Notes under the pieces: model-generated
What the model saw: only the letters and a program-made list of their open reading frames with translations
What the model was told of the DNA's origin: nothing
Database searches by the model: none
Virus record (IMG/VR): IMGVR_UViG_649989947_000021
DNA: 37,504 bases
Reading direction: 5' to 3' (one strand)
From: a virus
Taxonomy: Duplodnaviria > Heunggongvirae > Uroviricota > Caudoviricetes
Shown: positions 5,328 to 37,504 of the stretch, piece by piece
Layout: the number at the start of each line of letters is the position of its first letter
Position numbering within the stretch: position 1 is the first letter of the stretch
Translations under genes and position numbers: made by a program

Positions 5328-5968
5328 TTGTCGGTATACCTCTCTCGTTTGCTCAGTTGTTCAGGAATATGGTGCAACAGCTCACCGTCGCCGCAGTAAA
5401 TGGCGGCATGATTCGGCACCGATGAACCAAAACAGCACAGCAGCACATCGCCCGGCTGCGCCGCTGACAACGGCACCTGATACAGCCCTGTGGCCTCCAG
5501 ATTATCCAGATAGAGATTCTGGCCGTTACACCACCAGTCATCCTCACGATGAAAGTCCGGCATCTCAATCCCCGCCAGATGATAAGCATCCCGGAACAGC
5601 GTGTAACAGTCCGTCACCCCGTGCTCAAAGCGCCGCCCGGTAAGATGCGGCACACAGCGGAATTTATGAATCTCACCCCGGCAGACCAGCCACCAAGGCA
5701 AATCGCTCTGCACCTGCAGCCGCCTGTCAGCCTCACTCAGCCAGGGCAGACCACCGGGGTGGCTGTGGACCAGCGCCACAATCTCACCCTGCATCTCTGC
5801 CCGCAGCCAGTCCTCCGGCGACATCCGGAAATACGCCTCCGGCTCACCGGAGATATTCACGCAGGGAAAATATCTTTCCCCTTCCGGCGTTCTCACCACG
5901 AAGCCGCACGACTCCGCTGGCGCACATCGCCGGGCGTGCGCCAGAATCTCTGATTCTGTCTGTGTCAT
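5225..5968 (-). CDS. K: tail assembly protein K (MPN/JAMM plus NlpC/P60 domains)
   Basis: ORF with HSHPGG JAMM-like motif and a C-terminal Cys/His NlpC/P60-like region; start chosen at ATG 5968 (MTQTESEIL...), 5 nt after the L stop; a shorter start is possible. Confidence 0.8.
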   Translation of the reverse strand: MTQTESEILAHARRCAPAESCGFVVRTPEGERYFPCVNISGEPEAYFRMSPEDWLRAEMQGEIVALVHSHPGGLPWLSEADRRLQVQSDLPWWLVCRGEIHKFRCVPHLTGRRFEHGVTDCYTLFRDAYHLAGIEMPDFHREDDWWCNGQNLYLDNLEATGLYQVPLSAAQPGDVLLCCFGSSVPNHAAIYCGDGELLHHIPEQLSKRERYTDKWQRRTHSLWRHRAWHASAFTGIYNDLAAASTFV

Positions 5969-5972
5969 GGGA

Positions 5973-6671
5973 TTACTGCGAAAGTTTGTTAATGGAAAGG
6001 AAGCCGCCAAAGTTGCCGACGTTATTGCGAAACTTACAGCCGCTCAGGCATTTGCTGCATTTATCCTTCGTGATATCGGACGTCGGCTGGTCATATTCAT
6101 CCGCGACAGCCGGACCGTGATAACCACACTCATCACCGCGATAGGTCCAGGTGCAGGTGTTGGCCAGCATGATACGCCCCGGAAAAACAGCACCATCCGT
6201 TTCCGTCGGTGTGGACAACACAAAGGAGGCACTGACCGCACTCAGTTCGCTGCACTGCTCGATGCGCCAGCGGCTGATCACCTCCTGCTCCGGATCGGCG
6301 TCGCTGTTTCCGTTGACGAAGTTCACCGCATCCAGAAAACGGGCGTAAACCTTACGCCTGACCACCGTTCCGCCGACCAGACTCTGCAGGTCTTCCGCCA
6401 TCCCCGTGACCATGCCGTGCAGGTTAGAAACCGTCAGTGTCGGACGGGCAGCACTGCCCTTGCCGTTCAGTTCAAATCCTGTCCCCTGAATGGGGTATGC
6501 CTGATACTGCCGCCCCTGCCAGGTAACCGGCTCACCTTTTTCGTTCTGCTCATTACAGAAAAAATAACGTTCACCACCGACCTCTGTCAGATCGATTTCC
6601 CAGAGCACCACCTGGGCTGACTGAGTGAGGCGTGTCGTCTCATGATGTGTTTCCTGTGGAATATCCTGCAT
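5973..6671 (-). CDS. L: minor tail protein L
   Basis: 232-aa ORF MQDIPQETHHETTRLTQSAQVVLWEIDLTEVGGERYFFCNEQ..., lambda L-like by recall. Confidence 0.9.
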   Translation of the reverse strand: MQDIPQETHHETTRLTQSAQVVLWEIDLTEVGGERYFFCNEQNEKGEPVTWQGRQYQAYPIQGTGFELNGKGSAARPTLTVSNLHGMVTGMAEDLQSLVGGTVVRRKVYARFLDAVNFVNGNSDADPEQEVISRWRIEQCSELSAVSASFVLSTPTETDGAVFPGRIMLANTCTWTYRGDECGYHGPAVADEYDQPTSDITKDKCSKCLSGCKFRNNVGNFGGFLSINKLSQ

Positions 6672-6680
6672 CAGAGCCTC

Positions 6681-7011
6681 CTATGCCACGACCTGTTCAA
6701 AATCTGCCGTTATGGTTACCCACAGCGCCCCCACGCTTGCCGACCATTTACGACAAACCACCCTAATCGGTTTCCAGTCATAAGGTGGCGTCCACTGAAA
6801 TGCGCGGACGCCACCGTGCCGTTCCAGAAAGGCTTTTTAAAGATGGGTGTTCACATTTACGAACACGTATCGTCACGCTGTAAGTCGACAACTGGTTATT
6901 CAGTCCCGCCGCACGACGCTGTTCATAACCATCGCCCAGCTTCACTGTCACCACTTTCGGCTCTGATACCACATTCATATCCGGGCGCACTTTCCAGTGA
7001 AACGTCTCCAT
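6681..7011 (-). pseudogene. M: minor tail protein M, interrupted by a +1 frameshift in an A5/T5 run
   Basis: N-terminal frame (6778..7011, METFHWKVRPDMNVV...TYSVTIRV) is M-like, then diverges; the M-like C-terminus (KAFLERHGGVRAFQWTPPYDWKPIRVVCRKWSA...ADFEQVVA, stop at 6683..6681) lies in the adjacent frame; the junction is at the T5 run 6834..6838. Confidence 0.8.
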
Positions 7012-10000
7012 TACCGATATGCTCCACTTAACCGACCACCATCACGGGCCTGCTGTTGCATAAAGTCCGCTGCCGCTTTTATCCCGAGGTCATAAACCGC
7101 CTTCAGGGCAGCCGGACCTATCTGCCCGTTCGTGCCATCGTTATTGATCTCGATGTTGTACTGCGGGGAAAACATCGCCATACCTGAACCCCCAATATCC
7201 GCCACCCCCCCCAGCTTACCGTCAGCACCACGACGCAATGGCAGAATGGCTTCAGGTCCCGCTTCCCCCATCACACCCGCGCCTTTTGCAAAAGCAAAAA
7301 ACGTCGGACGGTTAACCACCGTGCCACTGTAGCGACTCAAATCAGCCGACTGATAAACACCGCCATCAGCATTGGCTACAAAATCAAAAGGCAGCGCGGA
7401 AGCAATGCCTTTTACCGCTTTCATTAAAGCTATCTGAGCCATGATTCTGGACATATCTGACAGCACAGAAGAAGTAAAAGATTTGAAATTGAGTTTGCCT
7501 GTAGTACAGAATGTCGCCAGCCAGTCACTCATGCTACTGAACGCAGACGTGAACAACTGTTCCACTGTCCAGGCTGTGTTATCCGCATTCTCAGTGACAT
7601 TCTGGAGTGCACGCAGGACTCCGTTTTTCCAGTTACCCTGAGCAATTTCAAGCTGTTGCCAGTAACGGCGATTCTCATTCAGTTGTCGGTTCAGGCTCTC
7701 CGTCAGCGCCTGCTCGGCCTTTCTGTAGTCATCCGTGTTATATGTCCCTTTCTGCTCACTATCCCGCCTCAACTGCTCCAGCTGTTGCTGGTATTTCTGA
7801 CGAAGACTCAGTTGTACCTGATATCGCTGCCGCTGCTGATCACCCATACCCACCGTGGCGATATCCAGATTATGTTGTTGACGCTGAGCACGCTCTTCTT
7901 CAGCCAGTTGACTGGTCAGCTGAATTGTTTTTTTCTTCAGCTCGTTGAGTGCCGTCTGTTTCTGAAGCTCCTGCTGTTTTACATCCAGCAGCGTCAGTGC
8001 CTGAATCAGTTCATCTTTACGGGCCAGCACACTCTTTTCATCTGCCGTCAGTTTTTTCCCGTCCAGGTCGCTGATGCGCTGCTGCAGAGCCAGAAGCTGT
8101 TTATGCGCTTCTGTCATCCTTTCCGTGGCAATGCCTGCTGACTGTCTGGCAGCAGCAATCTGTCCTTCCACCTGTGCCTGTTGCTGACTGTACTGCAGCA
8201 ATAACCGGGTGGCCTCATCATTACGGGTTTCGCGTGTTTTTTTCTTACCGGATGCCAGGGCTTTCTCGTAACGTTCATTTTCACGTTGTATCGCCGCATC
8301 CCTGACAGTCTGATCGGCGTACTGCATGGCATTAATACGCGCAATTTCACGCTGATGTCGTGCTGCTTCCGTTTCATTCATCCGGTTCAGTGCAGCATTT
8401 TCAGCATTACGGCGTTTCTGTTGCTCCTGATAATTCCGCTCTGCCTGCTCTTTTGCATCCTGCAAATCCTTCTGGCGTTTTTTTTCCTGAAGCTCGTTAA
8501 GACGCTGCTGATCGTACTCAACCTGAGAAGATGATGCCGTCCAGGGGAGTCTTTTCGCCCGCGACACTTTCTCCTGTAAAGCGGAAATCTGTTCATCCAG
8601 CGAGTCTTCACGACCAATATTCATGGCCGCATCCCAGAAACGACTCCATAAATCAGACAGATACTTCAGCGTACTGCCCAGCGCATTGAGGTTATTATCA
8701 ATATCCGCAGTACGCCGACCGGTTTCCTCTGCCAGTGCAGACATGGCTATCCGTGCCGCATCACTGGACCGCCCCTGTTCCCCAAGGACGCGTATCTGCT
8801 CAAGCTGAGTGGCAGTAAGAAAATGCAGCTCATTGTCCAGAGCCTTCGCGGCATTTACAGGATCATCCTTCAGCCGCTTAAACTGACTTATGGTATCGCT
8901 GACCGACTGGCCAACCGATCGCTCCATCTGTGCGGCAGCTCTCGCCACCATACCGATATCGTTTCCACGAAATGCACCACTCCCCACCACCTGAGCCAGC
9001 GCACCGGCTGCAGCATGTTGCGTGATACCATTCCCGGAAATAGCACGACTGAGCGTCCACAGCTGCCCGGCAGTGACTCCGGCATAATGCCCCGTCAGCG
9101 ACAGCTGGCGGTTAAATTCTTCCCCCTCCTTCTGACCGTCATACCAGGCTTTACCCAGACCATAGACAGCTGCGGCAATACCGCCAATAACCCCGCCCAG
9201 CATCATGCCTTTCGGTGACATCAGTGTGTCTATCCATCCGGCACGGTTAGCCAGCGTTATCCCGGATCCCCTCAGCGCCCCTAAATTGCCGCGGGCCAGT
9301 TCACCTATCAGAACGCCTATCTCCTGGCGGGCCGCTGCACTTTTCAGACCCAGCGAATGCGTGGCTTTTCCTGCCTGCTCCATTTTGCGGATATACACTT
9401 CTGCAGCACTGCTTACCCCCAGCTGGGCAGCCTTAGCACGAAGCAACTCAGAAGATGAAAGATTCTGGCGGGTTGCCTGCTCTTTAAGCTGACGGATAAA
9501 CGCCACTTTCTGTCGGGTACCCTCTTCCTCAGCCTGTGTAAGAACACGGGTTTTCGCCGTAACCTCAGAAATCAGCGCCAGATAATCCTGCTGACCAATC
9601 CCGCCACTGTTTCTGGCCTGTCGGATCTGCTGCTGAATACGCTGTAATTCCTGCAGCCCCGCACTGGCCTGTTTCACACTGTCAATCTGACGATAAAACG
9701 CAGCAGCCGCTTTATCCTGAGCCTCCGCCAGAGCCATGGCCTGCGCCTGTTCCTCGCGCATTTTCTGGCTCAGCGCCTCCATGCGCTGGCGGGTTTTCTC
9801 CACCTCGCGGGCCATGCGTTCATGAGCCTGTGCGTTCTTCTCCACCGTCTGCGCATGGACGGATGCGGCTGTTGCAGCCGAAGAAGCCGCCTGCGTTGTC
9901 TGCCGGGCGGCCTGAGTCTGACGCTCCATAAAACGCTGCATACGGGCAGAAGACCGTTCTGCATCGCTGGCTGCACCATTCAGAAGGTTTTTGATACGGG

Positions 10001-10067
10001 GGATTTCATTTTTAAACTCTGCCGCATCAATCCCCAAATCAATGACCAGGTTGGCTATCTGGTCCAT
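7011..10067 (-). CDS. H: tail tape measure protein H
   Basis: Approximately 1018-aa coiled-coil-rich ORF whose C-terminus (...NNDGTNGQIGPAALKAVYDLGIKAAADFMQQQARDGG...) matches lambda H by recall; start set at ATG 10067 (MDQIANLVIDLGID) with GGAGG 8 nt upstream; the ORF track start at 10097 is TTG. Confidence 0.9.
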   Translation of the reverse strand: MDQIANLVIDLGIDAAEFKNEIPRIKNLLNGAASDAERSSARMQRFMERQTQAARQTTQAASSAATAASVHAQTVEKNAQAHERMAREVEKTRQRMEALSQKMREEQAQAMALAEAQDKAAAAFYRQIDSVKQASAGLQELQRIQQQIRQARNSGGIGQQDYLALISEVTAKTRVLTQAEEEGTRQKVAFIRQLKEQATRQNLSSSELLRAKAAQLGVSSAAEVYIRKMEQAGKATHSLGLKSAAARQEIGVLIGELARGNLGALRGSGITLANRAGWIDTLMSPKGMMLGGVIGGIAAAVYGLGKAWYDGQKEGEEFNRQLSLTGHYAGVTAGQLWTLSRAISGNGITQHAAAGALAQVVGSGAFRGNDIGMVARAAAQMERSVGQSVSDTISQFKRLKDDPVNAAKALDNELHFLTATQLEQIRVLGEQGRSSDAARIAMSALAEETGRRTADIDNNLNALGSTLKYLSDLWSRFWDAAMNIGREDSLDEQISALQEKVSRAKRLPWTASSSQVEYDQQRLNELQEKKRQKDLQDAKEQAERNYQEQQKRRNAENAALNRMNETEAARHQREIARINAMQYADQTVRDAAIQRENERYEKALASGKKKTRETRNDEATRLLLQYSQQQAQVEGQIAAARQSAGIATERMTEAHKQLLALQQRISDLDGKKLTADEKSVLARKDELIQALTLLDVKQQELQKQTALNELKKKTIQLTSQLAEEERAQRQQHNLDIATVGMGDQQRQRYQVQLSLRQKYQQQLEQLRRDSEQKGTYNTDDYRKAEQALTESLNRQLNENRRYWQQLEIAQGNWKNGVLRALQNVTENADNTAWTVEQLFTSAFSSMSDWLATFCTTGKLNFKSFTSSVLSDMSRIMAQIALMKAVKGIASALPFDFVANADGGVYQSADLSRYSGTVVNRPTFFAFAKGAGVMGEAGPEAILPLRRGADGKLGGVADIGGSGMAMFSPQYNIEINNDGTNGQIGPAALKAVYDLGIKAAADFMQQQARDGGRLSGAYR

Positions 10068-10389
10068 AACGCACACCTCCGGAAATACCTTCCCCAAGAT
10101 GCATCAGTTCTTCGTCCGTTCGCTCCGGTATCCCGTTCTCTTCCGGTAAAAGGCTGAAATCAGCCACCGCAGCATCACTGCTGCCGGACACCATTCTCAC
10201 GATCAATGCCTTCAGCGAGGCAAACTGCGCATCCATCCACACATCACTGAAGCTCTGCATCCGGAAATAATCGCCCCACTCACCAAGCTCAGTGGCCGAC
10301 ATTTCCGACAGCATCCGCCGCCAGTCTGCCCGCCGGAACTCCCGGGCAAGCCGCATGACAAACTGCATTTCCCGCGTCAGGACTTTTCC
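10039..10389 (-). CDS. T: T-frame part of the G-T tail assembly chaperone, expressed by -1 frameshift from G
   Basis: ORF in the -1 frame relative to G, open only from 10401 downward, overlapping the G 3' end and the H start; same arrangement as lambda G/G-T. Confidence 0.7.
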   Translation of the reverse strand, partial: GKVLTREMQFVMRLAREFRRADWRRMLSEMSATELGEWGDYFRMQSFSDVWMDAQFASLKALIVRMVSGSSDAAVADFSLLPEENGIPERTDEELMHLGEGISGGVRYGPDSQPGH

Positions 10390-10766
10390 GGCGTCAGCGC
10401 CTCATGCTCATCATCCCCGGCATTATCAATGGTCCCCATACCGCTCAGCGACAGAACCATCTCCGCCCCCGCACCCAGGGCATCATACGACCATGTTGTA
10501 ATAACGGATGCGCAAAGCGTCTCTACATCCTTAGACTGATCCGCATTCCACTGTGAGCGGGAAACCAGCCAGGCATTGATATCCATCCCCATCCGCAGAA
10601 AAGCAATCTGTCGTTCAGCCTCCGGCAGTTCTCCCTCTTCGGCATCAAACTTTGCCGTTCGCTGCTGAACAAACGCCAGATATTCAATTCTCTGCAGCCC
10701 GGACAGCTCACTGAGCACCACGGACTGCTTTTCATAATTAAACGTGCCCTGTTTCAGAAACATCAT
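10377..10766 (-). CDS. G: tail assembly chaperone G
   Basis: ORF ...MMFLKQGTFNYEKQSVVLSELSGLQRIEYLAFVQQ... ending EALTPEKS; start at ATG 10766 with GGTGGAG upstream (ORF track start at 10805 is TTG and overlaps the terminator). Confidence 0.85.
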   Translation of the reverse strand: MMFLKQGTFNYEKQSVVLSELSGLQRIEYLAFVQQRTAKFDAEEGELPEAERQIAFLRMGMDINAWLVSRSQWNADQSKDVETLCASVITTWSYDALGAGAEMVLSLSGMGTIDNAGDDEHEALTPEKS

Positions 10767-10776
10767 GTTCTCCACC

Positions 10777-22560: not shown

Positions 22561-23889
22561 CTGAGAGATCCCCTCATAATTTCCCCAAAGCGTAACCATG
22601 TGTGAATAAATTTTGAGCTAGTAGGGTTGCAGCCACGAGTAAGTCTTCCCTTGTTATTGTGTAGCCAGAATGCCGCAAAACTTCCATGCCTAAGCGAACT
22701 GTTGAGAGTACGTTTCGATTTCTGACTGTGTTAGCCTGGAAGTGCTTGTCCCAACCTTGTTTCTGAGCATGAACGCCCGCAAGCCAACATGTTAGTTGAA
22801 GCATCAGGGCGATTAGCAGCATGATATCAAAACGCTCTGAGCTGCTCGTTCGGCTATGGCGTAGGCCTAGTCCGTAGGCAGGACTTTTCAAGTCTCGGAA
22901 GGTTTCTTCAATCTGCATTCGCTTCGAATAGATATTAACAAGTTGTTTGGGTGTTCGAATTTCAACAGGTAAGTTAGTTGCTAGAACCCATGGCTCCTTT
23001 GCCGACGCTGAGTAGATTTTAGGTGACGGGTGGTGACAATGAGTCCGTGTCGAGCGCTGATTTTTTCGGCCTTTAGAGCGAGATTTATACAATAGAATTT
23101 GGCATGAGATTGGATTGCTTTTAGTCAGCCTCTTATAGCCTAAAGTCTTTGAGTGACTAGATGACATATCATGTAAGTTGCTGATAGGTTTCCAGTTTTC
23201 CGCTCCTAGGTCTGCATATTGTACTTTTCCTCTTACTCGACTTAACCAGTACCAACCCAGCTTCTCAACGGATTTATACCATGGCACTTTAAAGCCAGCA
23301 TCACTGACAATGAGCGGTGTGGTGTTACTCGGTAGAATGCTCGCAAGGTCGGCTAGAAATTGGTCATGAGCTTTCTTTGAACATTGCTCTGAAAGCGGGA
23401 ACGCTTTCTCATAAAGAGTAACAGAACGACCGTGTAGTGCGACTGAAGCTCGCAATACCATAAGTCGTTTTTGCTCACGAATATCAGACCAGTCAACAAG
23501 TACAATGGGCATCGTATTGCCCGAACAGATAAAGCTAGCATGCCAACGGTATACAGCGAGTCGCTCTTTGTGGAGGTGACGATTACCTAACAATCGGTCG
23601 ATTCGTTTGATGTTATGTTTTGTTCTCGCTTTGGTTGGCAGGTTACGGCCAAGTTCGGTAAGAGTGAGAGTTTTACAGTCAAGTAATGCGTGGCAAGCCA
23701 ACGTTAAGCTGTTGAGTCGTTTTAAGTGTAATTCGGGGCAGAATTGGTAAAGAGAGTCGTGTAAAATATCGAGTTCGCACATCTTGTTGTCTGATTATTG
23801 ATTTTTCGCGAAACCATTTGATCATATGACAAGATGTGTATCCACCTTAACTTAATGATTTTTACCAAAATCATTAGGGGATTCATCAG
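22561..23889 (-). mobile_element. IS10 insertion sequence (IS4 family), 1329 bp
   Basis: Inside end CTGAGAGATCCCCTCATAATTTCCCC at 22561 and outside end (reverse complement) CTGATGAATCCCCTAATGATTTTGGTAAAAATCATTAAG ending at 23889; full 402-aa transposase; 9-bp flanking direct repeats. Confidence 0.95.
22574..23782 (-). CDS. tnp: IS10 transposase
   Basis: 402-aa ORF MCELDILHDSLYQFCPELHLKRLNSLTLACHALLDCKTLTLTELGRNLPTKARTKHNIKRIDRLLGN..., IS10 transposase by recall. Confidence 0.95.
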   Translation of the reverse strand: MCELDILHDSLYQFCPELHLKRLNSLTLACHALLDCKTLTLTELGRNLPTKARTKHNIKRIDRLLGNRHLHKERLAVYRWHASFICSGNTMPIVLVDWSDIREQKRLMVLRASVALHGRSVTLYEKAFPLSEQCSKKAHDQFLADLASILPSNTTPLIVSDAGFKVPWYKSVEKLGWYWLSRVRGKVQYADLGAENWKPISNLHDMSSSHSKTLGYKRLTKSNPISCQILLYKSRSKGRKNQRSTRTHCHHPSPKIYSASAKEPWVLATNLPVEIRTPKQLVNIYSKRMQIEETFRDLKSPAYGLGLRHSRTSSSERFDIMLLIALMLQLTCWLAGVHAQKQGWDKHFQANTVRNRNVLSTVRLGMEVLRHSGYTITREDLLVAATLLAQNLFTHGYALGKL

Positions 23890-29780: not shown

Positions 29781-30053
29781 TCATTCGTTTTTCATAACTG
29801 CCGCATTTGTGGCTGTGTGACTTCTACGTAACAAATCAGGGATTGCATCTTCAGGATGGGGATAAAGATCTGGTCTTAACCCATGAGGAGTAACTTTCCA
29901 TTCCACAACTTCACATACACGCAAGACGAAACGAGCAGGAATTGTTCTTTTTGAAAACCATTGGTTCACAGCTTGCGGCGTAACGCCTAGATTTCGCGCT
30001 ATGGCATTTTGTGCAATTAGCTCACGAAGTGCGTCGTAATCATTTCCTTTCAT
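29781..30053 (-). CDS. cro: Cro-like HTH repressor (YdaS-like)
   Basis: 90-aa ORF MKGNDYDALRELIAQNAIARNLGVTPQAVNQWFSKRTIP... with helix-turn-helix; divergent from cI across an operator region. Confidence 0.7.
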   Translation of the reverse strand: MKGNDYDALRELIAQNAIARNLGVTPQAVNQWFSKRTIPARFVLRVCEVVEWKVTPHGLRPDLYPHPEDAIPDLLRRSHTATNAAVMKNE

Positions 30054-30187
30054 CGCAACCCACCAATCTAAACTTTATAAATTCAAGATTACATCAAGTT
30101 TAAATTAACATGCAAGTCCACAAAAGATCGAATACACTAAAATCAAGTAAAAATTTATCGAAACCAAGTAACCAGCAAGGATTAACA
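30054..30187. promoter_or_regulatory. OR-like region with divergent promoters and repeated AATCAAGT-type motifs
   Basis: Intergenic between cro-like (minus) and cI (plus); repeated CAAGT-containing motifs including the 13-mer AAATCAAGTAAAA at 30140..30152; candidate minus-strand promoter -35 TTGCAT (30115..30110), 16-bp spacer, -10 TGTAAT (30093..30088). Confidence 0.45.
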
Positions 30188-30877
30188 ATGAAAAACTTAA
30201 AGAGCACTGAAAATCGAATTACAAAGCTGCTACAGGAGAAAGGCTGGAGCCAAGCAGAGCTGGCCCGAAAATTAGGTGTCAGCGCACAGTCCGTACAGTA
30301 CTGGACAACAGGAAAAACATTTCCAAGGGGAAACCGGCTTGCCCAGTTATCCGAAATAAGTGGTTATCCGCAATCGTGGTTTTTAGGAGAAATCACGTCA
30401 CGGCAGTTCTCTTCAAAGGAAAAACATCAAGCAAGAACTGACAGTGTGGTCTTTAACGTGCTCGATGTTGAGTTTAGTTGCGGCGATGGAACACATGTCC
30501 GTGGGGACTTTATCGATGTAGTTCGCTCAATCGAGCTTGATCCTGAATATGCCCGTCGCCTTGTTGGCAATAGAGCATTTCAAAACATAGAGATTGGTAA
30601 CGCAAGAGGAGATAGTATGGCTCCAACAATAGCCCCAGGAGATCTTCTTTTTCTCGATAAAACAGTGAATTACTTTGATGGTGATGGCATTTATGCTTTT
30701 TGCTTTGATGGTGAATGCTACGTCAAAAGATTACAAAAGATAGGAAGTAAAATCATGGTGTTATCTGATAACCCAAATTACCAATCCTGGAGCATTGAAA
30801 AAGATGCTCTTGAGCTGCTTTATATCCAATCGAAGGTAATCTCATCTGTTCCATTCAATATAAATAGATTTGGTTAA
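30188..30877 (+). CDS. cI: CI-like repressor (HTH_XRE N-terminus plus S24 LexA-like autopeptidase C-terminus)
   Basis: HTH LLQEKGWSQAELARKLGVSAQSVQYW; C-terminal GDSMAPTI ... K motif; start set at ATG 30188 with AGGA upstream; an alternative upstream ATG at 30110 exists. Confidence 0.85.
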   Translation: MKNLKSTENRITKLLQEKGWSQAELARKLGVSAQSVQYWTTGKTFPRGNRLAQLSEISGYPQSWFLGEITSRQFSSKEKHQARTDSVVFNVLDVEFSCGDGTHVRGDFIDVVRSIELDPEYARRLVGNRAFQNIEIGNARGDSMAPTIAPGDLLFLDKTVNYFDGDGIYAFCFDGECYVKRLQKIGSKIMVLSDNPNYQSWSIEKDALELLYIQSKVISSVPFNINRFG

Positions 30878-30939
30878 TTATTGATTATTAAAGAAAAATT
30901 TACAAATCAAGTAAAAGAGACGCAGAAATCAATTTTTTC

Positions 30940-30969
30940 TTGACAACTCCATCAATCAAGATCTAACAT
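30940..30969 (+). promoter_or_regulatory. PL-like early-left promoter
   Basis: -35 TTGACA (30940..30945), 18-bp spacer, -10 TAACAT (30964..30969); flanked by AATCAAGT-type motifs including AAATCAAGTAAAA at 30904..30916. Confidence 0.45.
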
Positions 30970-31023
30970 CACACCATCAATTTTGACTTGATTTATTGTT
31001 AATTTTAAATTGATGGTGATTCA

Positions 31024-31452
31024 ATGAAAGATCTGACAACCGCTGAGATATCGAACTTAAACCACTTCGAAAAAGAATCCTTTGCATTAAATATTGCAAA
31101 TCTGGTAGGTGCTGCTCGTACTTTCCATTTAATTGATGGTGATCGCTCTAAAGAATTGGGGTTTGAAGTCATGGAGTTTGTTCATGAATACGCCCTGTCT
31201 GCTACTTATCCATTACATAATCACATAATCAACAAACAACCAAATAAAATCCGCACCCAACGCGAAGCCTGCGGCTTAACAACCGCCGAACTCGCCAGGC
31301 TGCTCGATCTCGATGAAGAAATTATCATCCAGTGGGAAAGCGGAGAGTACGAACCAACCATCAGCATGCTTATCCCTCTGGCTAATGTTCTTGGCTGTGA
31401 TCCAATGTTGTTATTGACTGATGCTTATAAACAAAATCAGGAGGAAGCATAA
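31024..31452 (+). CDS. first early-left gene: protein with C-terminal HTH_XRE domain and unknown N-terminal domain
   Basis: 142-aa ORF; C-terminal GLTTAELARLLDLDEEIIIQWESGEYEPTISMLIPLANVLGCDP is HTH_XRE-like; not N-like. Confidence 0.6.
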   Translation: MKDLTTAEISNLNHFEKESFALNIANLVGAARTFHLIDGDRSKELGFEVMEFVHEYALSATYPLHNHIINKQPNKIRTQREACGLTTAELARLLDLDEEIIIQWESGEYEPTISMLIPLANVLGCDPMLLLTDAYKQNQEEA

Positions 31453-31453
31453 G

Positions 31454-31645
31454 ATGAAAATGTTCAAAGGCCTTACCAACGAACCGGAGACAGCTTTTCA
31501 TCACATTGCCGTACTGCTTGAAGCGGGGTTAATCATTTCGGCTTCCGGTGATGAAGAATGTGATGAACTTTCGGATGATATCTTTTTACTGGCACAACAA
31601 TACGCCAAAAGCGCATGCGATGCATTTAAGGAGCAAAGAACATGA
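31454..31645 (+). CDS. small acidic protein
   Basis: 63-aa ORF MKMFKGLTNEPETAFHHIAVLLEAGLIISASGDEECDELSDD...; GGAGG upstream; starts 1 nt after the previous stop. Confidence 0.5.
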   Translation: MKMFKGLTNEPETAFHHIAVLLEAGLIISASGDEECDELSDDIFLLAQQYAKSACDAFKEQRT

Positions 31646-31833
31646 TAACTCCATTAAATATTCTTGAGGAAGTGGCGGCACAAATAAAAGAGAATACATC
31701 AATGCTTGAATTTATATTTAAGAATTCGCCCGACCAAGGAGAGACAGACGATTATTTATGCTGTCTCATTCGCTCCATGAATAAGACCTGTGAAATGGCT
31801 TACGAGTATATAGAAACACTACGCAACGAATAA
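31642..31833 (+). CDS. small acidic protein
   Basis: 63-aa ORF MITPLNILEEVAAQIKENTSMLEFIFKNSPDQGETDDYLCC...; ATGA overlap with the previous gene; AAGGAG upstream. Confidence 0.5.
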   Translation: MITPLNILEEVAAQIKENTSMLEFIFKNSPDQGETDDYLCCLIRSMNKTCEMAYEYIETLRNE

Positions 31834-32017
31834 AGAACACTCAGTAAAAAATCACACATAAAAACATGACGGCCTCTGGTCGTGGATTTCCACAACCAGA
31901 AAATAATGGTGATGCATGAAAAATAGAAACGCTTATAAAACCGCATTATTAATGGCTAATGCAGGATACTGGTCAGTTGCAATACTGTTTCTCAGAAAAG
32001 CATACGGGAAATAACAA

Positions 32018-32377
32018 ATGGCATGTACAACCATTTATAAAGATCGTCGCCGCATGGTAACAGCGGCACTCCGGCGGATGCAACGTAAAACAGGTAGTAA
32101 TCTGCTCGTCGTTGACCTCCCGGACGGAGAAATAACAACGATAGAAATAACTGAACAGTTCATGAACCAGTTGTTATTACGATTTGAGGGTCTTACCCGT
32201 GTTGAATATGGACGGACGGAAGGAGAAGCAACAATCCGTACCGCATACCAGAATGCCATCGGTATTAATCAACACACGGAATATCTCACTGAATCAGGGA
32301 AACTGATAGTGGACGGCCTTTTAAAAGAGGTTGTTGACTACGTAAAAGAGAAATATATCAGTGGAGGAATTAACTGA
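32018..32377 (+). CDS. hypothetical protein
   Basis: 119-aa ORF. Confidence 0.5.
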   Translation: MACTTIYKDRRRMVTAALRRMQRKTGSNLLVVDLPDGEITTIEITEQFMNQLLLRFEGLTRVEYGRTEGEATIRTAYQNAIGINQHTEYLTESGKLIVDGLLKEVVDYVKEKYISGGIN

Positions 32378-32586
32378 TGTCTGATTTATCCCCTCTTATA
32401 CACGAAAAAGTACAGATCATTATGACGATTGAAAATGGTCAGGTAATAAATACCCGTAAAGTTCACAATAACGAGATGATTGCCAGCATGGATACCTTCT
32501 TGTGGATAGCAAAGAAAGCGGGATATCAGGTAATCGCTCCTGATCTGGAGGAAATCGGTGACATTAACAGCAATACGAATTCCTGA
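32377..32586 (+). CDS. hypothetical small protein
   Basis: 69-aa ORF; start overlaps the previous stop; GGAGG upstream. Confidence 0.45.
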   Translation: MSDLSPLIHEKVQIIMTIENGQVINTRKVHNNEMIASMDTFLWIAKKAGYQVIAPDLEEIGDINSNTNS

Positions 32587-32779
32587 GTGGGTGCACCTGC
32601 AGGCGGTCCGTGTTCTCCGCCAGTTCAGAGCCAGACGAATTCATCCCTGTCGTATGCACGGCTCCGGAAACCTGAGTCTGAGGGTTAATCGCCGCTGGCG
32701 GCTGCTGTCCCGAGACGGCGGCCAGAACTGGGAAGTAATGAGCCATGAACGATACAGCAAAGTTAAGGACCGGAAATGA
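32558..32779 (+). CDS. HigB-like (RelE/ParE superfamily) toxin homolog, probably an N-terminally replaced remnant
   Basis: GTG start with GGAGG 7 nt upstream; IHPCRMHGSGNLSLRVNRRWRLLSRDGGQNWEVMSHERY resembles the HigB C-terminus (LHPLKGDREGYWSITVRANWRITFQFINGDAYILNYEDYH) by recall; homology lies in a GC-rich patch between two EcoRI sites. Confidence 0.4.
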   Translation: MTLTAIRIPEWVHLQAVRVLRQFRARRIHPCRMHGSGNLSLRVNRRWRLLSRDGGQNWEVMSHERYSKVKDRK

Positions 32780-32812
32780 ACAATAAACCTTCAAACCAAA
32801 AGGAGAGTATTG

Positions 32813-33391
32813 ATGATTAATTCAACCATTACCCCTGAACCTACATTAACAGGCATCCGTTTTGGTAATCGAATTATTGGTTATTCAACTGCGGTTCGCC
32901 AGATCGACAACGGTAACTATGACAAACGAATTCCGGACGGGCTCGATCTGATAGCTTGCATTATGGAAGGGATTGAAAGCGGCTGGTTTATGCCGTGTAT
33001 TGAAAAACAAATCATCCTATGGCGCTGGCTTGTTGTCGCCGTGTTCATTGCTGAGGAGCAGGAGAAGAACGGGACTGTCGATGTTCAGAATGACAAGGGC
33101 GGCGTAGATACAGCCGTTGTATACACAGGAAAACCCGGTTCAATCAGCATTTATCCATGGTCTGAGCGCTTCGCGCTCGCTAACCATATCGAGGCGGGCG
33201 CAATTGAAAAATACGGGCCTGACGTTGGCCAGCAGATGGCGCTGCGTATGTATCAGGACATGGTTGTAACTGACGAGAAATGCGGATTCAGGCTGTCAGC
33301 GATGGGCCGGGAGGGACTCAACATACTACATGACAGCTTCATTGAACTGATTCAGAAAGACGGTATGCCAGACATGCCGGTTATGCACTGA
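32813..33391 (+). CDS. hypothetical protein
   Basis: 192-aa ORF with GGAG 6 nt upstream of ATG 32813. Confidence 0.55.
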   Translation: MINSTITPEPTLTGIRFGNRIIGYSTAVRQIDNGNYDKRIPDGLDLIACIMEGIESGWFMPCIEKQIILWRWLVVAVFIAEEQEKNGTVDVQNDKGGVDTAVVYTGKPGSISIYPWSERFALANHIEAGAIEKYGPDVGQQMALRMYQDMVVTDEKCGFRLSAMGREGLNILHDSFIELIQKDGMPDMPVMH

Positions 33392-33402
33392 GGTGGACGA
33401 AA

Positions 33403-34149
33403 ATGAACATAGTAACGATCAATAACAAACAGCTTCCGGCAGTCGAATATCGCGGTCAGCGTGTTGTGACGCTGGCGATGATTGATGAAGTCCACCAGCG
33501 ACCGGAAGGAACAGCGCGTGCAGCATTCAACCGAAACCGTGAGCATTTCATCAGCGGTGTGGATTATGCCGAATTAGGTGCGGACGTAATACGTACGGAC
33601 CTCCCGGAAGGAACATTCTCTAAATTTGCACCATCAGGGATTGTACTTTTTGAATCAGGTTACCTGATGTTGACGAAGCCATTCAATGACGCCCTTGCCT
33701 GGCAGGTTCAGCGCGAACTGGTTAACAGCTACTTCCGCACTCGCACACCGCTAACGGAAATCGAGATGATCGCTGCGATAGCCGCCGACGCTGTTCGTCA
33801 ACAGAAGCGCCTGAATCATGTGGAAGAACAGCTCGAAACAGTCACAGAAGCGGTGGAAACCATCAAACGCGGAAATATGCGCGCCGGATATGTCGGTTAT
33901 CGCCAGGTGGTCGCCAAAAGCGGAATGACTGATGCTAAGTGCCGCAATCTGGTCAATGCCTACAGCATCCCAACCGATACGCACGAATTTATGACACCAG
34001 ATGGTCTTCTTTCGCGCCGGGCTATCGTGGAGCTGGAGCCATTCATGAAAGCATTTCATCAGATGATGTCAGAGGCAGAGCCACGTGGTACCCGCTGGTA
34101 TCACCCGAAGATGGGGCTGTTTCAGGTGATTGGTTGGGAGGGTAAATAA
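33403..34149 (+). CDS. ORF6N-domain protein (antirepressor-like)
   Basis: N-terminal AVEYRGQRVVTLAMIDEVHQRPEGTARAAFNRNREHFISGVDYAEL resembles the ORF6N/Bro-N-type domain by recall; GAGGTGG upstream. Confidence 0.5.
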   Translation: MNIVTINNKQLPAVEYRGQRVVTLAMIDEVHQRPEGTARAAFNRNREHFISGVDYAELGADVIRTDLPEGTFSKFAPSGIVLFESGYLMLTKPFNDALAWQVQRELVNSYFRTRTPLTEIEMIAAIAADAVRQQKRLNHVEEQLETVTEAVETIKRGNMRAGYVGYRQVVAKSGMTDAKCRNLVNAYSIPTDTHEFMTPDGLLSRRAIVELEPFMKAFHQMMSEAEPRGTRWYHPKMGLFQVIGWEGK

Positions 34150-34487
34150 TGTCACTCATTACACAAAATTTCCGCCTCAATGCGCTGGCAAATCAGTATG
34201 CGGCGGCACTGCACAACCACATATCCGCCACCAGCGGTGGTCATTTCCTGATTAATGTCAATGGGCAATCCATACGAGTAAACATCATCGGTGGGGTTAA
34301 AGGCATCAGGGACTTAATCGATGGTTATGCTCTGAAGGCTATCAAAGAAAATTACCCCCAATGGGAAGCCGTTGGTATTCAACTGTTAAGCAAATGCGTT
34401 CGTGGAAACGAGCTGACGCAAAGCGGCAAAGAAATCTGGCAGAGCATGGTCAACGACATGAGCGATACCGTTATGGGGAACATGTAA
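34149..34487 (+). CDS. hypothetical protein
   Basis: 112-aa ORF; TAATG overlap with the previous gene. Confidence 0.5.
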   Translation: MSLITQNFRLNALANQYAAALHNHISATSGGHFLINVNGQSIRVNIIGGVKGIRDLIDGYALKAIKENYPQWEAVGIQLLSKCVRGNELTQSGKEIWQSMVNDMSDTVMGNM

Positions 34488-34709
34488 ATGAAAATCCAAT
34501 ACCAGGACTATGGCGCCGTAGCGAACATCGTGATCACCAGTTCCTGCCTGACATTGCAAAAGCATAACCGCGTTGTTGATGCGGTGCTGTTTAATGTACA
34601 GGGGATCTCTGAAAACCGCAGCGGCTTTTTCTGGGTTAAGTCATCGTTGTCAGGAAAAACACGCGACATCCTGCGCGCCTACAAAATCGTACAGCGGGAG
34701 GCAAAGTGA
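34488..34709 (+). CDS. hypothetical protein
   Basis: 73-aa ORF starting right after the previous stop. Confidence 0.45.
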   Translation: MKIQYQDYGAVANIVITSSCLTLQKHNRVVDAVLFNVQGISENRSGFFWVKSSLSGKTRDILRAYKIVQREAK

Positions 34710-34804
34710 TGAAGTCATTCCTCCTGTCCATACTGTTTAGTCTGCTGCTGGCGTCCGTCGTTTTCGGTACGCTGATTGAATATAAATTTTTAATGAATTA
34801 CTGA
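34709..34804 (+). CDS. 31-aa hydrophobic single-helix micro-protein
   Basis: GGGAGG then 8 nt then ATG overlapping the previous stop (TGATG); encodes MKSFLLSILFSLLLASVVFGTLIEYKFLMNY; below the ORF-track size cutoff. Confidence 0.45.
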   Translation: MKSFLLSILFSLLLASVVFGTLIEYKFLMNY

Positions 34805-34812
34805 GGTGCGGG

Positions 34813-34968
34813 GTGGGCAAGATCAAAAACCCAGTTGTACTTATCCATAAGCGAGAAAATAGTGACTCCTACGCCGTTACAATCACCTGCGGTAGCCAGA
34901 ACTATCACGACGCCGTTCTGATGGCGTCGATGGAACTGGATATGAGTGACGATGATGTCGATACCTAG
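34813..34968 (+). CDS. possible 51-aa acidic small protein
   Basis: GTG start 5 nt after GAGG; MGKIKNPVVLIHKRENSDSYAVTITCGSQNYHDAVLMASMELDMSDDDVDT; fills the gap to the next gene. Confidence 0.3.
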   Translation: MGKIKNPVVLIHKRENSDSYAVTITCGSQNYHDAVLMASMELDMSDDDVDT

Positions 34969-34986
34969 AGTAAAACAGGCTATTAC

Positions 34987-35442
34987 ATGGCTGAAGAAAT
35001 CGAGCGACTGAAACAAGCACTTTCCGCTGCGGAAAATAATCTGATTGATTCCGAATGCCTCGTAGCTGAATTAAGCAAAGCAAAGGATCACGCATATGGG
35101 CTGGTCGACACATACGACTGGCAACGTCAGCGTCTCCACGCAGCCGCTGAGAAAGTCCTCAAATGGTGCAGACAAGAAGCTGAACACCGTACCGGCGATC
35201 CAGAGAAAGCAGAAAACTATGCGTGCGTTAAAGAACTACGCGACGCATTAACTTTTTGCAAAAGTTCTGAAAGCAGCAAGAAGAAAGGCCTGACTATCAC
35301 CCTGCCCGATATCACATCAAAGGCATTCTGGAGCGGTACCGGAAAAAACGCAAAATTCCATCCGGCAACCTATAAACGCTGGGTGAAAGAAGCTATTAAA
35401 CGGGATTGTGTTATTGCCGGGATCGGCGTGGAGGTGAAATGA
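34987..35442 (+). CDS. hypothetical protein
   Basis: 151-aa ORF MAEEIERLKQALSAAENNLIDSE... Confidence 0.55.
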   Translation: MAEEIERLKQALSAAENNLIDSECLVAELSKAKDHAYGLVDTYDWQRQRLHAAAEKVLKWCRQEAEHRTGDPEKAENYACVKELRDALTFCKSSESSKKKGLTITLPDITSKAFWSGTGKNAKFHPATYKRWVKEAIKRDCVIAGIGVEVK

Positions 35443-35525
35443 TGAATTGGCCTGAAGCATTCACCGCAGTAGGAGTTGCAATAGCGGTGGCATTTATTCT
35501 GTATTCGCTTTTCCGCTGGGGATAA
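35439..35525 (+). CDS. 28-aa hydrophobic micro-protein
   Basis: GGAGGTG then ATGATG overlapping the previous stop; encodes MMNWPEAFTAVGVAIAVAFILYSLFRWG. Confidence 0.4.
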   Translation: MMNWPEAFTAVGVAIAVAFILYSLFRWG

Positions 35526-35529
35526 AGGA

Positions 35530-35772
35530 ATGTTCGCTCTGATTCAACGTGGTCAGATATACACCGATAGTGCTGGCTACCCGATAAAAATTATTCGCTG
35601 CATAAACAACACTGTGTTGTACAGAAGAATGGATGGGCGAACACAGTCGGTAAAAATAAACGATTTTAATGAACTGTTTGAACGGATCGATCACCAGGAA
35701 TACCGACAAATTCTGGCAGAAACAGAGCAGGAAGCTCATCTGAAAAAATTACGAGCCATGAAAAGGAAGTAA
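35530..35772 (+). CDS. hypothetical protein
   Basis: 80-aa ORF with AAGGA upstream. Confidence 0.5.
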   Translation: MFALIQRGQIYTDSAGYPIKIIRCINNTVLYRRMDGRTQSVKINDFNELFERIDHQEYRQILAETEQEAHLKKLRAMKRK

Positions 35773-35775
35773 AGA

Positions 35776-35922
35776 ATGAATAAAGCATTTGAACGATGGG
35801 TCCACCAGCGTTACGGCAATCGCTATGACCTGACACGAGATGTTGACGGTTTCTACTGTCGTGAAATTGTGAAACGAATGTTTGAAGTGTGGTGCCACTG
35901 CCGTGGGCTGAGTGTTGTGTGA
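35776..35922 (+). CDS. 48-aa Cys-rich small protein (possible zinc-binding)
   Basis: AAGGAAG 6 nt upstream of ATG; MNKAFERWVHQRYGNRYDLTRDVDGFYCREIVKRMFEVWCHCRGLSVV. Confidence 0.35.
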   Translation: MNKAFERWVHQRYGNRYDLTRDVDGFYCREIVKRMFEVWCHCRGLSVV

Positions 35923-35929
35923 GGTTGGC

Positions 35930-36184
35930 ATGCAGACAATCATCTATCAGATAACCCCCAGCAAATGGTGTACGGAGAGAGTCCTCATTGCATCAACAGG
36001 GCTAAAGCCTGGCACCATTGAGCGGGCAAGAAGAAAGTCATGGATGCAGGGAAAAGAATACCGCCATTACGCTGTAGAAGGTGATCCGGGGCACTACAGT
36101 GAATGCCTGTACAACATCGAAGAAATTATGCGATGGATCGAAAACCAGAAACAACCAGGTGCCAAAAATGCAAGTTCCGGTTAA
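35930..36184 (+). CDS. xis: putative excisionase
   Basis: 84-aa ORF MQTIIYQITPSKWCTERVLIASTGLKPGTIERARRKSW... immediately upstream of int; GAGG 5 nt upstream; assignment by position and size. Confidence 0.5.
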   Translation: MQTIIYQITPSKWCTERVLIASTGLKPGTIERARRKSWMQGKEYRHYAVEGDPGHYSECLYNIEEIMRWIENQKQPGAKNASSG

Positions 36185-36217
36185 CCTGTTAATGCTCCTG
36201 GACGTCTGGGAGGTTTA

Positions 36218-37504
36218 ATGAGTAACGCATCATACCCGACAGGCGTTGAAAACCATGGAGGATCACTCCGTATATGGTTTCACTATAATGGCAAACGTGT
36301 CAGAGAAAACCTCGGTGTTCCTGACACAGCCAAAAACCGGAAGATCGCTGGTGAACTTCGCACTTCCGTTTGTTTTGCAATCAGAATGGGGAGTTTCGAC
36401 TACGCCGCGCAGTTCCCTAATTCCCCTAACCTGAAACACTTTGGTCTGGGAAAAAGAGAGATAACCGTTAAGGCACTTTCGGAAAAATGGTTGGACCTTA
36501 AGAAAATTGAGATTTGTGCGAATGCACTTAACCGTTACCAGTCAGTAATTAAAAACATGTTACCAATGTTAGGTGAAAAAAAACTGGTTTCATCCATAAC
36601 AAAAGAGGATTTACTTTTCGTAAGGAGAGATTTGTTGACCGGTTACCAAAAGCTTTCTAATGGAAAGACTTCTTCCATAAAAGGGCGCTCAGTGGTCACG
36701 GTAAACTACTATATGACAACCATAGCTGGAATGTTTCAATTTGCAACAGATAATGGTTATACCTCAGGAAACCCATTTAACGGTCTGGCTCCCTTAAAAA
36801 AGTCCAAGGTAAAACCAGATCCTCTCACCCGTGACGAATTTATTCGTTTTATTGAGGCTTGCCGTCATCAACAAACAAAAAACCTGTGGATTCTCGCTGT
36901 ATACACGGGTATTCGTCACGGGGAGTTGGTATCGCTGGCATGGGAAGATATAGACCTTAAAGCAAGGACTATAACCATCCGTAGAAATTATACAAAACTT
37001 GGCGAATTCACTCCACCAAAAACCGATGCAGGCACCGGAAGGACAATTCATCTGGTTCAACCAGCTATTGATGCTCTTAAAAGCCAGGCGGAAATGACCA
37101 TGCTTGGAAAGCAACATTCTGTAGAGGTGAAGCAGAGGGAATATGGGAGAACTGCTGTGCATAAATGCACTTTTGTTTTTAGTCCTCAGGTAACAAAACA
37201 GCAGCAGTTGTCCGGACCTCACTACAAGGTTGACTCCATCAGGGAGTCATGGACAAGTATCTTAAAACGCGCAGGTCTGAGACACAGAAAATCGTACCAA
37301 TCCAGGCATACTTATGCATGCTGGTCACTTGCCGCAGGAGCTAATCCTAGTTTTATCGCAAGCCAGATGGGCCACACAAACGCACAAATGGTATTCAATG
37401 TTTACGGAGCATGGATGAAAGACAACAATCACGAACAGATAGAACTCCTTAACAAAAGACTATCTGAAAGTGTCCCATGTATGCCCCATAAGAAAGTTGG
37501 GTAA
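36218..37504 (+). CDS. int: tyrosine site-specific integrase
   Basis: 428-aa ORF with C-terminal catalytic-region motifs (...RHTYACWSLAAGANPSFIASQMGHTNAQMVFNVYGAW...); stop codon is the last 3 bases of the window. Confidence 0.9.
   Translation: MSNASYPTGVENHGGSLRIWFHYNGKRVRENLGVPDTAKNRKIAGELRTSVCFAIRMGSFDYAAQFPNSPNLKHFGLGKREITVKALSEKWLDLKKIEICANALNRYQSVIKNMLPMLGEKKLVSSITKEDLLFVRRDLLTGYQKLSNGKTSSIKGRSVVTVNYYMTTIAGMFQFATDNGYTSGNPFNGLAPLKKSKVKPDPLTRDEFIRFIEACRHQQTKNLWILAVYTGIRHGELVSLAWEDIDLKARTITIRRNYTKLGEFTPPKTDAGTGRTIHLVQPAIDALKSQAEMTMLGKQHSVEVKQREYGRTAVHKCTFVFSPQVTKQQQLSGPHYKVDSIRESWTSILKRAGLRHRKSYQSRHTYACWSLAAGANPSFIASQMGHTNAQMVFNVYGAWMKDNNHEQIELLNKRLSESVPCMPHKKVG

Follow-up and report, generated by a model that had tools for sequence, protein, structure and literature searches.

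The window analyzed here, a stretch of 37,504 nucleotides (nt) from the Caudoviricetes record IMGVR_UViG_649989947_000021, contains a micro open reading frame (micro-ORF) of 27 codons, which lies between an Ea22-like gene and a DUF4222 gene and is preceded by its own ribosome-binding site. Our preferred explanation, to which we assign a probability of roughly 55%, is that it encodes a single-pass inner-membrane micro-protein, which would be made together with the early phage genes and act on a membrane partner. The evidence comes from the conservation of the reading frame, of a hydrophobic helix with characteristic ends and of the translation signals among copies of the micro-ORF in phages, bacterial genomes and plasmids. 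The elements of the locus in the window are as follows.

35430..35436, + strand: Shine-Dalgarno (SD) motif GGAGGTG, inside the 3'-terminal codons of the upstream ORF; a mosaic junction, from which homology to other phages extends
35439..35441, + strand: first ATG, 4 nt past GGAGG; not conserved (replaced by GTG in O55:H7, missing from the main family) and probably not the start
35440..35442, + strand: stop codon TGA of the upstream ORF, overlapping the micro-ORF start as ATGA (first ATG) or TGATG (second ATG)
35442..35525, + strand: coding sequence of the micro-protein, 27 codons plus TAA (35523-35525), product MNWPEAFTAVGVAIAVAFILYSLFRWG
35457..35513, + strand: predicted transmembrane helix, codons 6-24, AFTAVGVAIAVAFILYSLF, flanked by W3-P4-E5 and R25-W26-G27

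The initial annotation of this locus had described GGAGGTG just before an ATGATG that overlaps the upstream stop, and a product of 28 amino acids (aa) forming a single hydrophobic helix with a basic and aromatic end. The signals can be read as described (35430-35444, with TGA at 35440-35442) and the character of the helix stands, but the length probably does not. Read from the first ATG of the ATGATG at 35439-35444, the frame gives MMNWPEAFTAVGVAIAVAFILYSLFRWG and ends with the TAA at 35523-35525. Since the starts of the homologues all align with the second ATG (35442), which lies 7 nt past GGAGG, and since the first ATG is only 4 nt from the SD and is replaced by GTG in the O55:H7 copy, the product is probably the 27-aa peptide starting at 35442 rather than the 28-aa one.

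Conservation of the frame and of a membrane helix

Copies of the micro-ORF were collected with a degenerate codon pattern derived from the conserved ends, ATGANNTGGCCNGANGC-N(52-58)-CGNTGGNGNTRA, which allows lengths of 81-87 nt. The pattern has one match in the window (0.00 expected, 100 shuffles) and matches at least 120 viral contigs, every match listed being exactly 84 nt long. The 57 DNA versions obtained encode 34 peptides (40 in a larger set of 213 copies), all of 27 codons and free of internal stops; under random substitution stops would be expected in 10.7 of the 57 variants, and none was observed. Both other forward frames are interrupted by stops in all 57 variants. The pooled ratio of nonsynonymous to synonymous polymorphism (pN/pS) is 0.42 in the family frame versus 0.66 and 1.74 in the other forward frames, and the entropies at codon positions 1, 2 and 3, calculated for the interior codons outside the search pattern, are 0.54, 0.30 and 0.97. 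Between subfamilies the DNA diverges at up to 32 of the 84 nt, with a bias toward third positions, and the residues are conserved. Purifying selection on the frame at the amino-acid level is thus shown by comparison of the copies, and we consider the micro-ORF very probably a real translated gene.

A second search was anchored on the first 20 nt only, so that the remainder of the ORF was free to vary. Of the 124 copies found in this way, 119 keep 27 codons; two variants have in-frame 6-nt deletions with the C-terminal YSICRWG retained, two have lost the stop codon and one is broken. Database entries include in-frame expansions of a GCNATG repeat (AM to AMAMAMAM) that give peptides of 29-35 aa with the C-terminus kept. 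Expansion and contraction of this Ala-Met repeat within the helix was seen over a range of 25-35 aa (P0050, P0057, P0061, P0042; loci L154 and L210); P0003, with a larger internal duplication, reaches 42 aa. The YSICRWG or YSICHWG end is kept throughout these length variants.

No conserved RNA structure was found over the block: the consensus fold has an energy of -1.1 kcal/mol, the fold of the window sequence has z = +0.5, there is no covariation, and Rfam gives no match. A structured RNA element was rejected on the fold energies and the Rfam result.

The family consensus, M-x-W-P-E-A-F-x-T-V-G-x-A-M-A-V-A-L-V-V-Y-S-I-C-R-W-G, describes one Trp-flanked hydrophobic helix. In an alignment of 18 variants no variation is seen at M1, W3, P4, A6, G11, R25 and W26, and almost none at C24. 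In the pattern-derived sets M1, W3, P4, A6, R25 and W26 are fixed by the search pattern itself; G11 was free to vary there and is glycine in 56 of 57 DNA versions and 39 of 40 peptides. Strong conservation is also seen at E/D5, A15, Y/F21, S22, I23 and C24, the last being F in the subfamily of the window. The grand average of hydropathy is about 1.1, and the best 19-residue window (residues 6-24) has a summed Hessa free energy of -0.9 to +0.2 kcal/mol, which is favorable to borderline for insertion. Among 11 mutually distant variants the hydrophobic core contains 3 polar, charged or proline residues, compared with about 27 expected under random substitution. The product is therefore likely to be a single-pass membrane peptide. 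According to the positive-inside rule, the basic flank of a transmembrane helix faces the cytoplasm, and the placement of E5 and R25 suggests an N-out/C-in topology for the micro-protein. G11, A15 and S22 share one side of the helix, forming a stripe of small residues (G11-x3-A15-x6-S22).

Translation signals and gene context

A GGAGG SD (two GGAG-type variants included) lies 7-10 nt upstream of the start in 160 of the 213 copies, which correspond to the 13 commonest of 45 distinct upstream contexts, and some SD-like motif is present in all 45 contexts but one, a truncated context. The spacing between SD and ATG is 7 nt in the class reading ...CAGGAGGTGAATCA ATG and 10 nt in the class reading ...GTGGAGGATATTTTACG ATG. 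Start and upstream stop share nucleotides in 195 of 196 copies, with ATGA in 176 and a one-nucleotide overlap in 19. This overlap places the micro-ORF as a putative translationally coupled cistron, for which dependence on upstream translation is predicted. The frame retained in the 5'-anchored copies, the selection on it, the GGAGG-type SD and the near-universal overlap all support the proposal of the initial annotation that a hydrophobic micro-protein is translated here in coupling with the upstream gene.

The genes that precede the micro-ORF belong to at least four unrelated types.

Type 1: DUF551 proteins (PF04448, E = 5e-20)
Type 2: a family ending ...ERNGLISVEDILR
Type 3: a Zn-ribbon/coiled-coil family
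Type 4: the Ea22-like coiled-coil protein of the window

These proteins share only the last residues encoded by the SD (...E-V-x-x, then the stop). Many blastn matches between the window and other phages begin at 35430, that is, at the SD, and because homology begins there the mobile unit is evidently the SD together with the ORF. The block of the window differs from that of BP-4795 by 1 nt over 84 nt, and in the neighboring DUF4222 gene 57 of 243 positions differ. Since the block is near-invariant within the subfamily while the DUF4222 gene diverges, it evidently sits at a recombination junction.

The genes and promoter sites relevant to expression of the micro-ORF in the window are the following.

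34813..35442, + strand: Ea22-like coiled-coil gene, the upstream partner, split by an amber codon (34966-34968) into a 51-aa ORF (34813..34968) and a 151-aa ORF (34987..35442)
35530..35772, + strand: DUF4222 gene (PF13973, E = 3.6e-16), with its ATG 4 nt after the micro-ORF stop
30940..31011, + strand: pL-like promoter sites adjoining the repressor gene, from a promoter scan and the RefSeq annotation of a 99.9% identical record

In phi467 the Ea22-like partner is a single ORF of 209 aa. A TGG-to-TAG change splits the copy in the window, which is flagged as partial by PGAP and is evidently a pseudogene, owing to the amber codon at 34966-34968; the micro-ORF of the window must therefore depend mainly on its own SD. 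The near-identical RefSeq record, NZ_OY754392 (99.9%), identifies the element as a lambdoid, phiP27-like prophage inserted beside yecE. An IS21-family insertion sequence, ISEc62 (istA/istB, about 7016-8982), splits the tail tape-measure gene into fragments at about 5434-6960 and 9072-10775 (converted coordinates), and because of this interruption the copy in the window is taken to sit in a decaying, defective prophage.

The leftward early operon leads from an XRE-type repressor past a series of small genes to DUF4222, followed by a 48-aa ORF, xis and int. A promoter scan of 30000-37504 found sigma-70-like sites only at 30877-31011, beside the XRE-type repressor, and no convincing terminator was found between these promoters and xis/int. 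The pL-like sites at 30940..31011 are the likely source of the transcript carrying the micro-ORF, and the assignment to an early-left operon in the initial annotation agrees with this arrangement. That annotation had also counted two micro-proteins of this type in the operon. The other ORF exists (34706..34804, 32 aa, hydrophobic) and is annotated in phi467, but it is no relative: the two are unrelated in sequence, and the first has a narrow distribution, with no other phage record found by tblastn, so that its conservation falls far short of that of the 27-codon frame. A motif GGGGA lies within the last codons of the micro-ORF, ahead of the DUF4222 ATG, and the DUF4222 gene is thus the next link of a tightly packed, probably coupled chain.

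Across the family 18 classes of downstream context were distinguished. A hok/sok locus lies directly 3' of the micro-ORF in 81 of about 205 copies, and a DUF4222 gene follows in about 47 copies, the window included; strong intrinsic terminators follow the micro-ORF in many copies. Examples of the copies adjacent to hok/sok (hokW/hokD) are 933W (L004, 1501-1584), L014, L016 and L017; in copies of this kind the roughly 50 nt past the stop likely hold the hok promoter. In one downstream class of 15 copies (e.g. after L023, 10392-10475) an SD-led hydrophobic ORF of 34 aa, MSDDISLAMEGALAVIAVVGVYCLVVFLMDRLGN, follows within 140 nt and is succeeded by a hairpin, so that two tiny membrane proteins stand in tandem. 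The micro-ORF thus typically closes a series of Ea-type accessory genes as its final small cistron; such series are found in operons of the pL side, at pR-side or right-end positions and on plasmids. Elsewhere in the window, four phage-borne transfer RNA genes (Ile, Lys, Thr and Gly) lie on the minus strand at about 22824-23133, upstream of the lysis genes.

Distribution and database searches

A tblastn search with the peptide retrieved 99 phage records with identities between 100% and about 48%, including 933W, VT1-Sakai, BP-4795, ArgO145 and P22-like 'EaA' contexts. It also retrieved 180 plasmids, mostly non-mobilizable and of about 90-105 kb, of which 154 are from E. coli, 25 from Salmonella and one from Klebsiella. 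With a 126-nt blastn query (35420-35545), which takes in the flanks and not the micro-ORF alone, 2825 places were found in 1546 of 5426 complete E. coli genomes (28%), no genome having more than 7; coverage of at least 80% of the query at a single place was seen in 592 genomes. In a set of 185,579 species-representative genomes, in-frame matches to the degenerate pattern were found in Escherichia and Shigella, plus two tiny contigs of 369 and 431 nt from assemblies of Acinetobacter idrijaensis and Xanthomonas pisi, which are taken to be contamination. Pattern matches in Streptomyces and other actinobacteria were rejected as chance (82 nt, out of frame, in G+C-rich genomes), as were tblastn matches to Gordonia phages with E >= 1. 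Judged by these matches, the family spans lambdoid and Shiga-toxin phages and phage-plasmid-sized replicons of Escherichia, Shigella and Salmonella. The micro-ORF is unannotated in RefSeq and in the GenBank records of phi467, 933W, VT1-Sakai and BP-4795, where it falls into an 'intergenic' gap of about 87 nt.

Sequence searches of Pfam, PHROG, NCBIfam, PADLOC and PDB found no family for the peptide. Matches to DUF883_C, B12D, PTR2, phrog_4612, phrog_35838 and PilA were sub-threshold transmembrane-helix noise and none was accepted. An identity with DUF551 (PF04448) was likewise rejected: the peptide has no match to that profile and starts after or over the DUF551 stop, in the -1 frame, and it is the upstream proteins that match. 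The NCBI label 'DUF551 domain-containing protein, partial' on peptide fragments (P0001, P0002, P0016, P0018, P0020 and others) is a propagated mislabel. Protein searches were performed with a 40-codon stretch of the window and with a natural 40-aa read-through variant as queries. Among 5.8 billion predicted proteins the window variant is represented by two fragments only, both bearing that label, and the commoner variant by 71 sporadic calls as 'hypothetical' or 'bacteriophage protein'. An exhaustive profile search of 1.84 billion representatives gave only 50 hits.

These searches also revealed divergent stand-alone relatives, e.g. MEISWPEAIMWIGIAFAAALAIYSIMRWGD and MNITNWPEAFTYIGCAFAIAIIFYSMFRWG, which lie in A+T-rich phage-like gene strings, have an SD and abut or overlap the upstream stop. 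Two such relatives with the form WPEA...G...YS.xRWG were seen in metagenome or read-archive assemblies (L238, 778-870; L239, 2501-2593). In the phage collection L239 matched nothing, and L238 showed only a weak match of one neighboring gene, to Proteus phages; one divergent relative adjoins a Ser/Thr kinase and PP2C-like pair. In two natural in-frame fusions (P0085 and P0088; L237, 156-776) the upstream stop codon is missing and an Ea22-like protein continues into the peptide, which would there form a C-terminal tail anchor; a DUF4222 gene follows, as in the window.

The peptide string occurs in no paper found, and it is absent from the supplements of the Sakai ribosome-profiling and microproteome papers. 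The family is undescribed and unnamed, and the broader kind to which it belongs, the hydrophobic unannotated micro-protein, is well known (PMC11188072). That study describes cryptic Enterobacteriaceae micro-proteins encoded by ORFs of 15-70 codons in 'intergenic' gaps, which are hydrophobic or transmembrane and under purifying selection (PMC11188072). The micro-protein fits this general class, although the near-universal stop-start overlap and the phage mosaic behavior are particular to the 27-aa family; the peptide was not found in the text or supplements of PMC11188072.

Proposed function and alternative explanations

According to the explanation we prefer, a transcript from the pL-like promoters would carry the micro-ORF along with early phage genes, and ribosomes finishing the upstream gene would re-initiate on it, fresh ribosomes would bind its own SD, or both. 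By the time translation arrives at the stop codon, a chain of 27 residues has not yet emerged from the ribosomal tunnel, and insertion into the membrane would for this reason be post-translational. The released peptide would place one Trp-flanked helix across the inner membrane, with the acidic WPE end facing the periplasm and the R-W-G end the cytoplasm. It may then pack against a conserved host inner-membrane protein and modulate it during early lytic development. Modulation of a host protein is proposed because the ends of the peptide are conserved, the stripe of small residues is present and the phage-encoded neighbors are interchangeable; this last step, which draws on analogy, is put forward tentatively and is somewhat less probable than its negation.

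The analogy is with KdpF, AcrZ, MgtS, PmrR, CydX and Caulobacter SidA, small bacterial single-pass proteins that each regulate a larger protein of the membrane. Like these, the micro-protein does not exceed about 50 aa, is built as one hydrophobic helix whose short ends are conserved and lacks an enzymatic domain, and its gene is a small operon cistron of a kind often overlooked by annotation. Unlike these, it is phage-borne and moves readily from one gene context to another, no partner gene is consistently adjacent, and its sequence resembles none of theirs. A second comparison is with the lambda exo-xis or 'ea' ORFs (orf60a, orf61, orf63, orf73, ea22 and ea8.5), which form a non-essential early-left region with early transcription and strong mosaicism (PMC3824215, PMC7093339, PMC8614690). 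The micro-ORF of the window resembles them in these respects and lies within that region, after an Ea22-like gene and before xis and int. In contrast, none of the lambda ORFs is a 27-aa membrane peptide, and the family is also present outside this region, where it adjoins hok at pR-side or right-end positions, as well as on plasmids. In the survey and modelling paper on exo-xis proteins the word 'transmembrane' does not occur, and DUF551 and DUF4222 are not named.

Several observations weigh against the membrane micro-protein explanation. At 0.42 the pN/pS is no better than moderate, and the copies sampled share ancestry. On the opposite strand, 56 of 57 variants are also open in the frame sharing the wobble position, which has no conserved start or flanks; an antisense gene was rejected on the grounds that no minus-strand ORF of the window spans the block and that conservation does not extend to the flanks. 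Conservation of the N-terminal codons reaches some wobble sites (CCT is invariant), and some nucleotide-level constraint, on initiation or recombination, therefore acts too. Individual copies are damaged: that of POCJ13 has an amber codon (TGG to TAG), that of 689R5 has a 1-nt deletion, the annotated coding sequence there being the frameshifted product, and the 5'-anchored set includes the one broken copy. In the window itself the upstream gene is a pseudogene and the prophage is defective; the peptide is identical to those of the functional phages phi467, VT1-Sakai and BP-4795. The literature yielded no experiment demonstrating either translation or the peptide itself; the one relevant ribosome-profiling catalogue, that of Sakai, is limited to ORFs of at least 30 aa. 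Conservation of one helical face was not significant (p ~0.15), and a 'packing face' is suggestive only.

One alternative, which we regard as unlikely, is that the peptide is a membrane-damaging toxin of the type I or Kil type that dissipates the membrane potential or blocks division, serving host shut-off or abortive killing. The micro-protein shares with type I toxins (Hok/Gef, Ibs, ShoB, DinQ, TisB) a tiny hydrophobic helix, a prophage location and a frequent position beside hok/sok; its size and single helix resemble those of the Ibs, ShoB, DinQ and TisB class in particular, the 81 copies mentioned above lie directly upstream of hok/sok, and expression in the early lytic operon would fall where host killing is tolerated. 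However, type I toxins are typically under tight translational repression, whereas the micro-ORF has a strong SD and coupled translation, and it lacks an antisense RNA and a promoter or leader of its own. No promoter-like sites were found on either strand near 35.4 kb, the micro-ORF being embedded in a polycistronic operon, and the promoter scan and Rfam gave neither an antisense promoter nor a known small RNA over it. Pfam, NCBIfam and PADLOC gave no match to Hok/Gef or any other toxin family. Genomes carry up to 7 copies with no sign of an antidote, and adjacency to hok is just one of the 18 downstream contexts.

Less likely again, the peptide may serve the preceding Ea-type protein as a membrane anchor or subunit, with coupled translation matching the amounts of the two products and the peptide tethering a soluble upstream protein. 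The nearly universal stop-start overlap and the in-frame Ea22-like fusions (P0085, P0088; L237) speak for this possibility. On the other hand, the upstream partners are of at least four unrelated types with nothing but their SD-encoded last residues in common, and the fusions are rare (2 representatives among the 50 hits) and may be simple stop-loss mutants.

It is improbable that translation itself is what matters, i.e. that the micro-ORF is a cis-acting coupler that hands ribosomes on to the next gene or covers the 3' end of the transcript against Rho or RNases, its peptide having no function. Such a role could account for the DUF4222 ATG 4 nt past the stop, the GGGGA within the last codons, the frequent position as last cistron ahead of a terminator and the nucleotide-level conservation of the 5' codons. 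It would not account for W3, P4, G11, R25 and W26, which are invariant or nearly so though their codons vary, for the maintained hydrophobicity or for indels that stay in frame and keep the C-terminal motif, and the downstream genes to which ribosomes would be handed vary or are absent.

That the block is not a gene at all, being a recombination linker or mosaic-junction sequence that is open by accident, or a structured RNA, is very improbable. It does lie exactly at mosaic junctions, with matches beginning at 35430, and within the subfamily its DNA is near-invariant compared with the 57/243 differences in the DUF4222 gene. Between subfamilies, however, divergence of up to 32/84 nt is biased toward third positions and spares the residues; the ATG, the stop and the SD are conserved; the stops expected under random substitution are absent; and there is neither RNA structure nor covariation.

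A programmed -1 frameshift, by which the frame would be translated solely as an addition to the C-terminus of the upstream protein, would fit the -1 frame relative to the upstream gene, the SD-like motif just upstream and the existence of fused forms, but it is scarcely credible given that a canonical X XXY YYZ slippery heptamer occurs in 1 of 80 distinct upstream contexts and that the conserved ATG at ideal SD spacing favors independent initiation. A regulatory leader or arrest peptide of the TnaC or SecM type was rejected in view of the 18 downstream contexts and the absence of a conserved RNA structure over the block.

Sequences related to the gene for the proposed membrane micro-protein are found in about 28% of complete E. 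coli genomes; the gene is also present in the Shiga-toxin phages 933W, VT1-Sakai and BP-4795, which are of medical importance, and standard annotation skips it. The locus is a clean natural example of a mobile module whose own ribosome-binding site comes to lie within the end of whichever gene it follows. Small membrane proteins regulate transporters, sensors and cell division, and a phage-borne one that is expressed early is a candidate factor in host takeover or competition between phages. More speculatively, and with considerable doubt on our part, the peptide may be the founding member of an undescribed phage family of 'end-of-operon' membrane micro-proteins that target a specific host inner-membrane machine (for division, DNA entry or transport, or FtsH/HflKC quality control), in which case it could influence the outcome of prophage induction and hence the release of Shiga toxin. 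The value of the finding lies in a well-supported new family rather than in a new principle.

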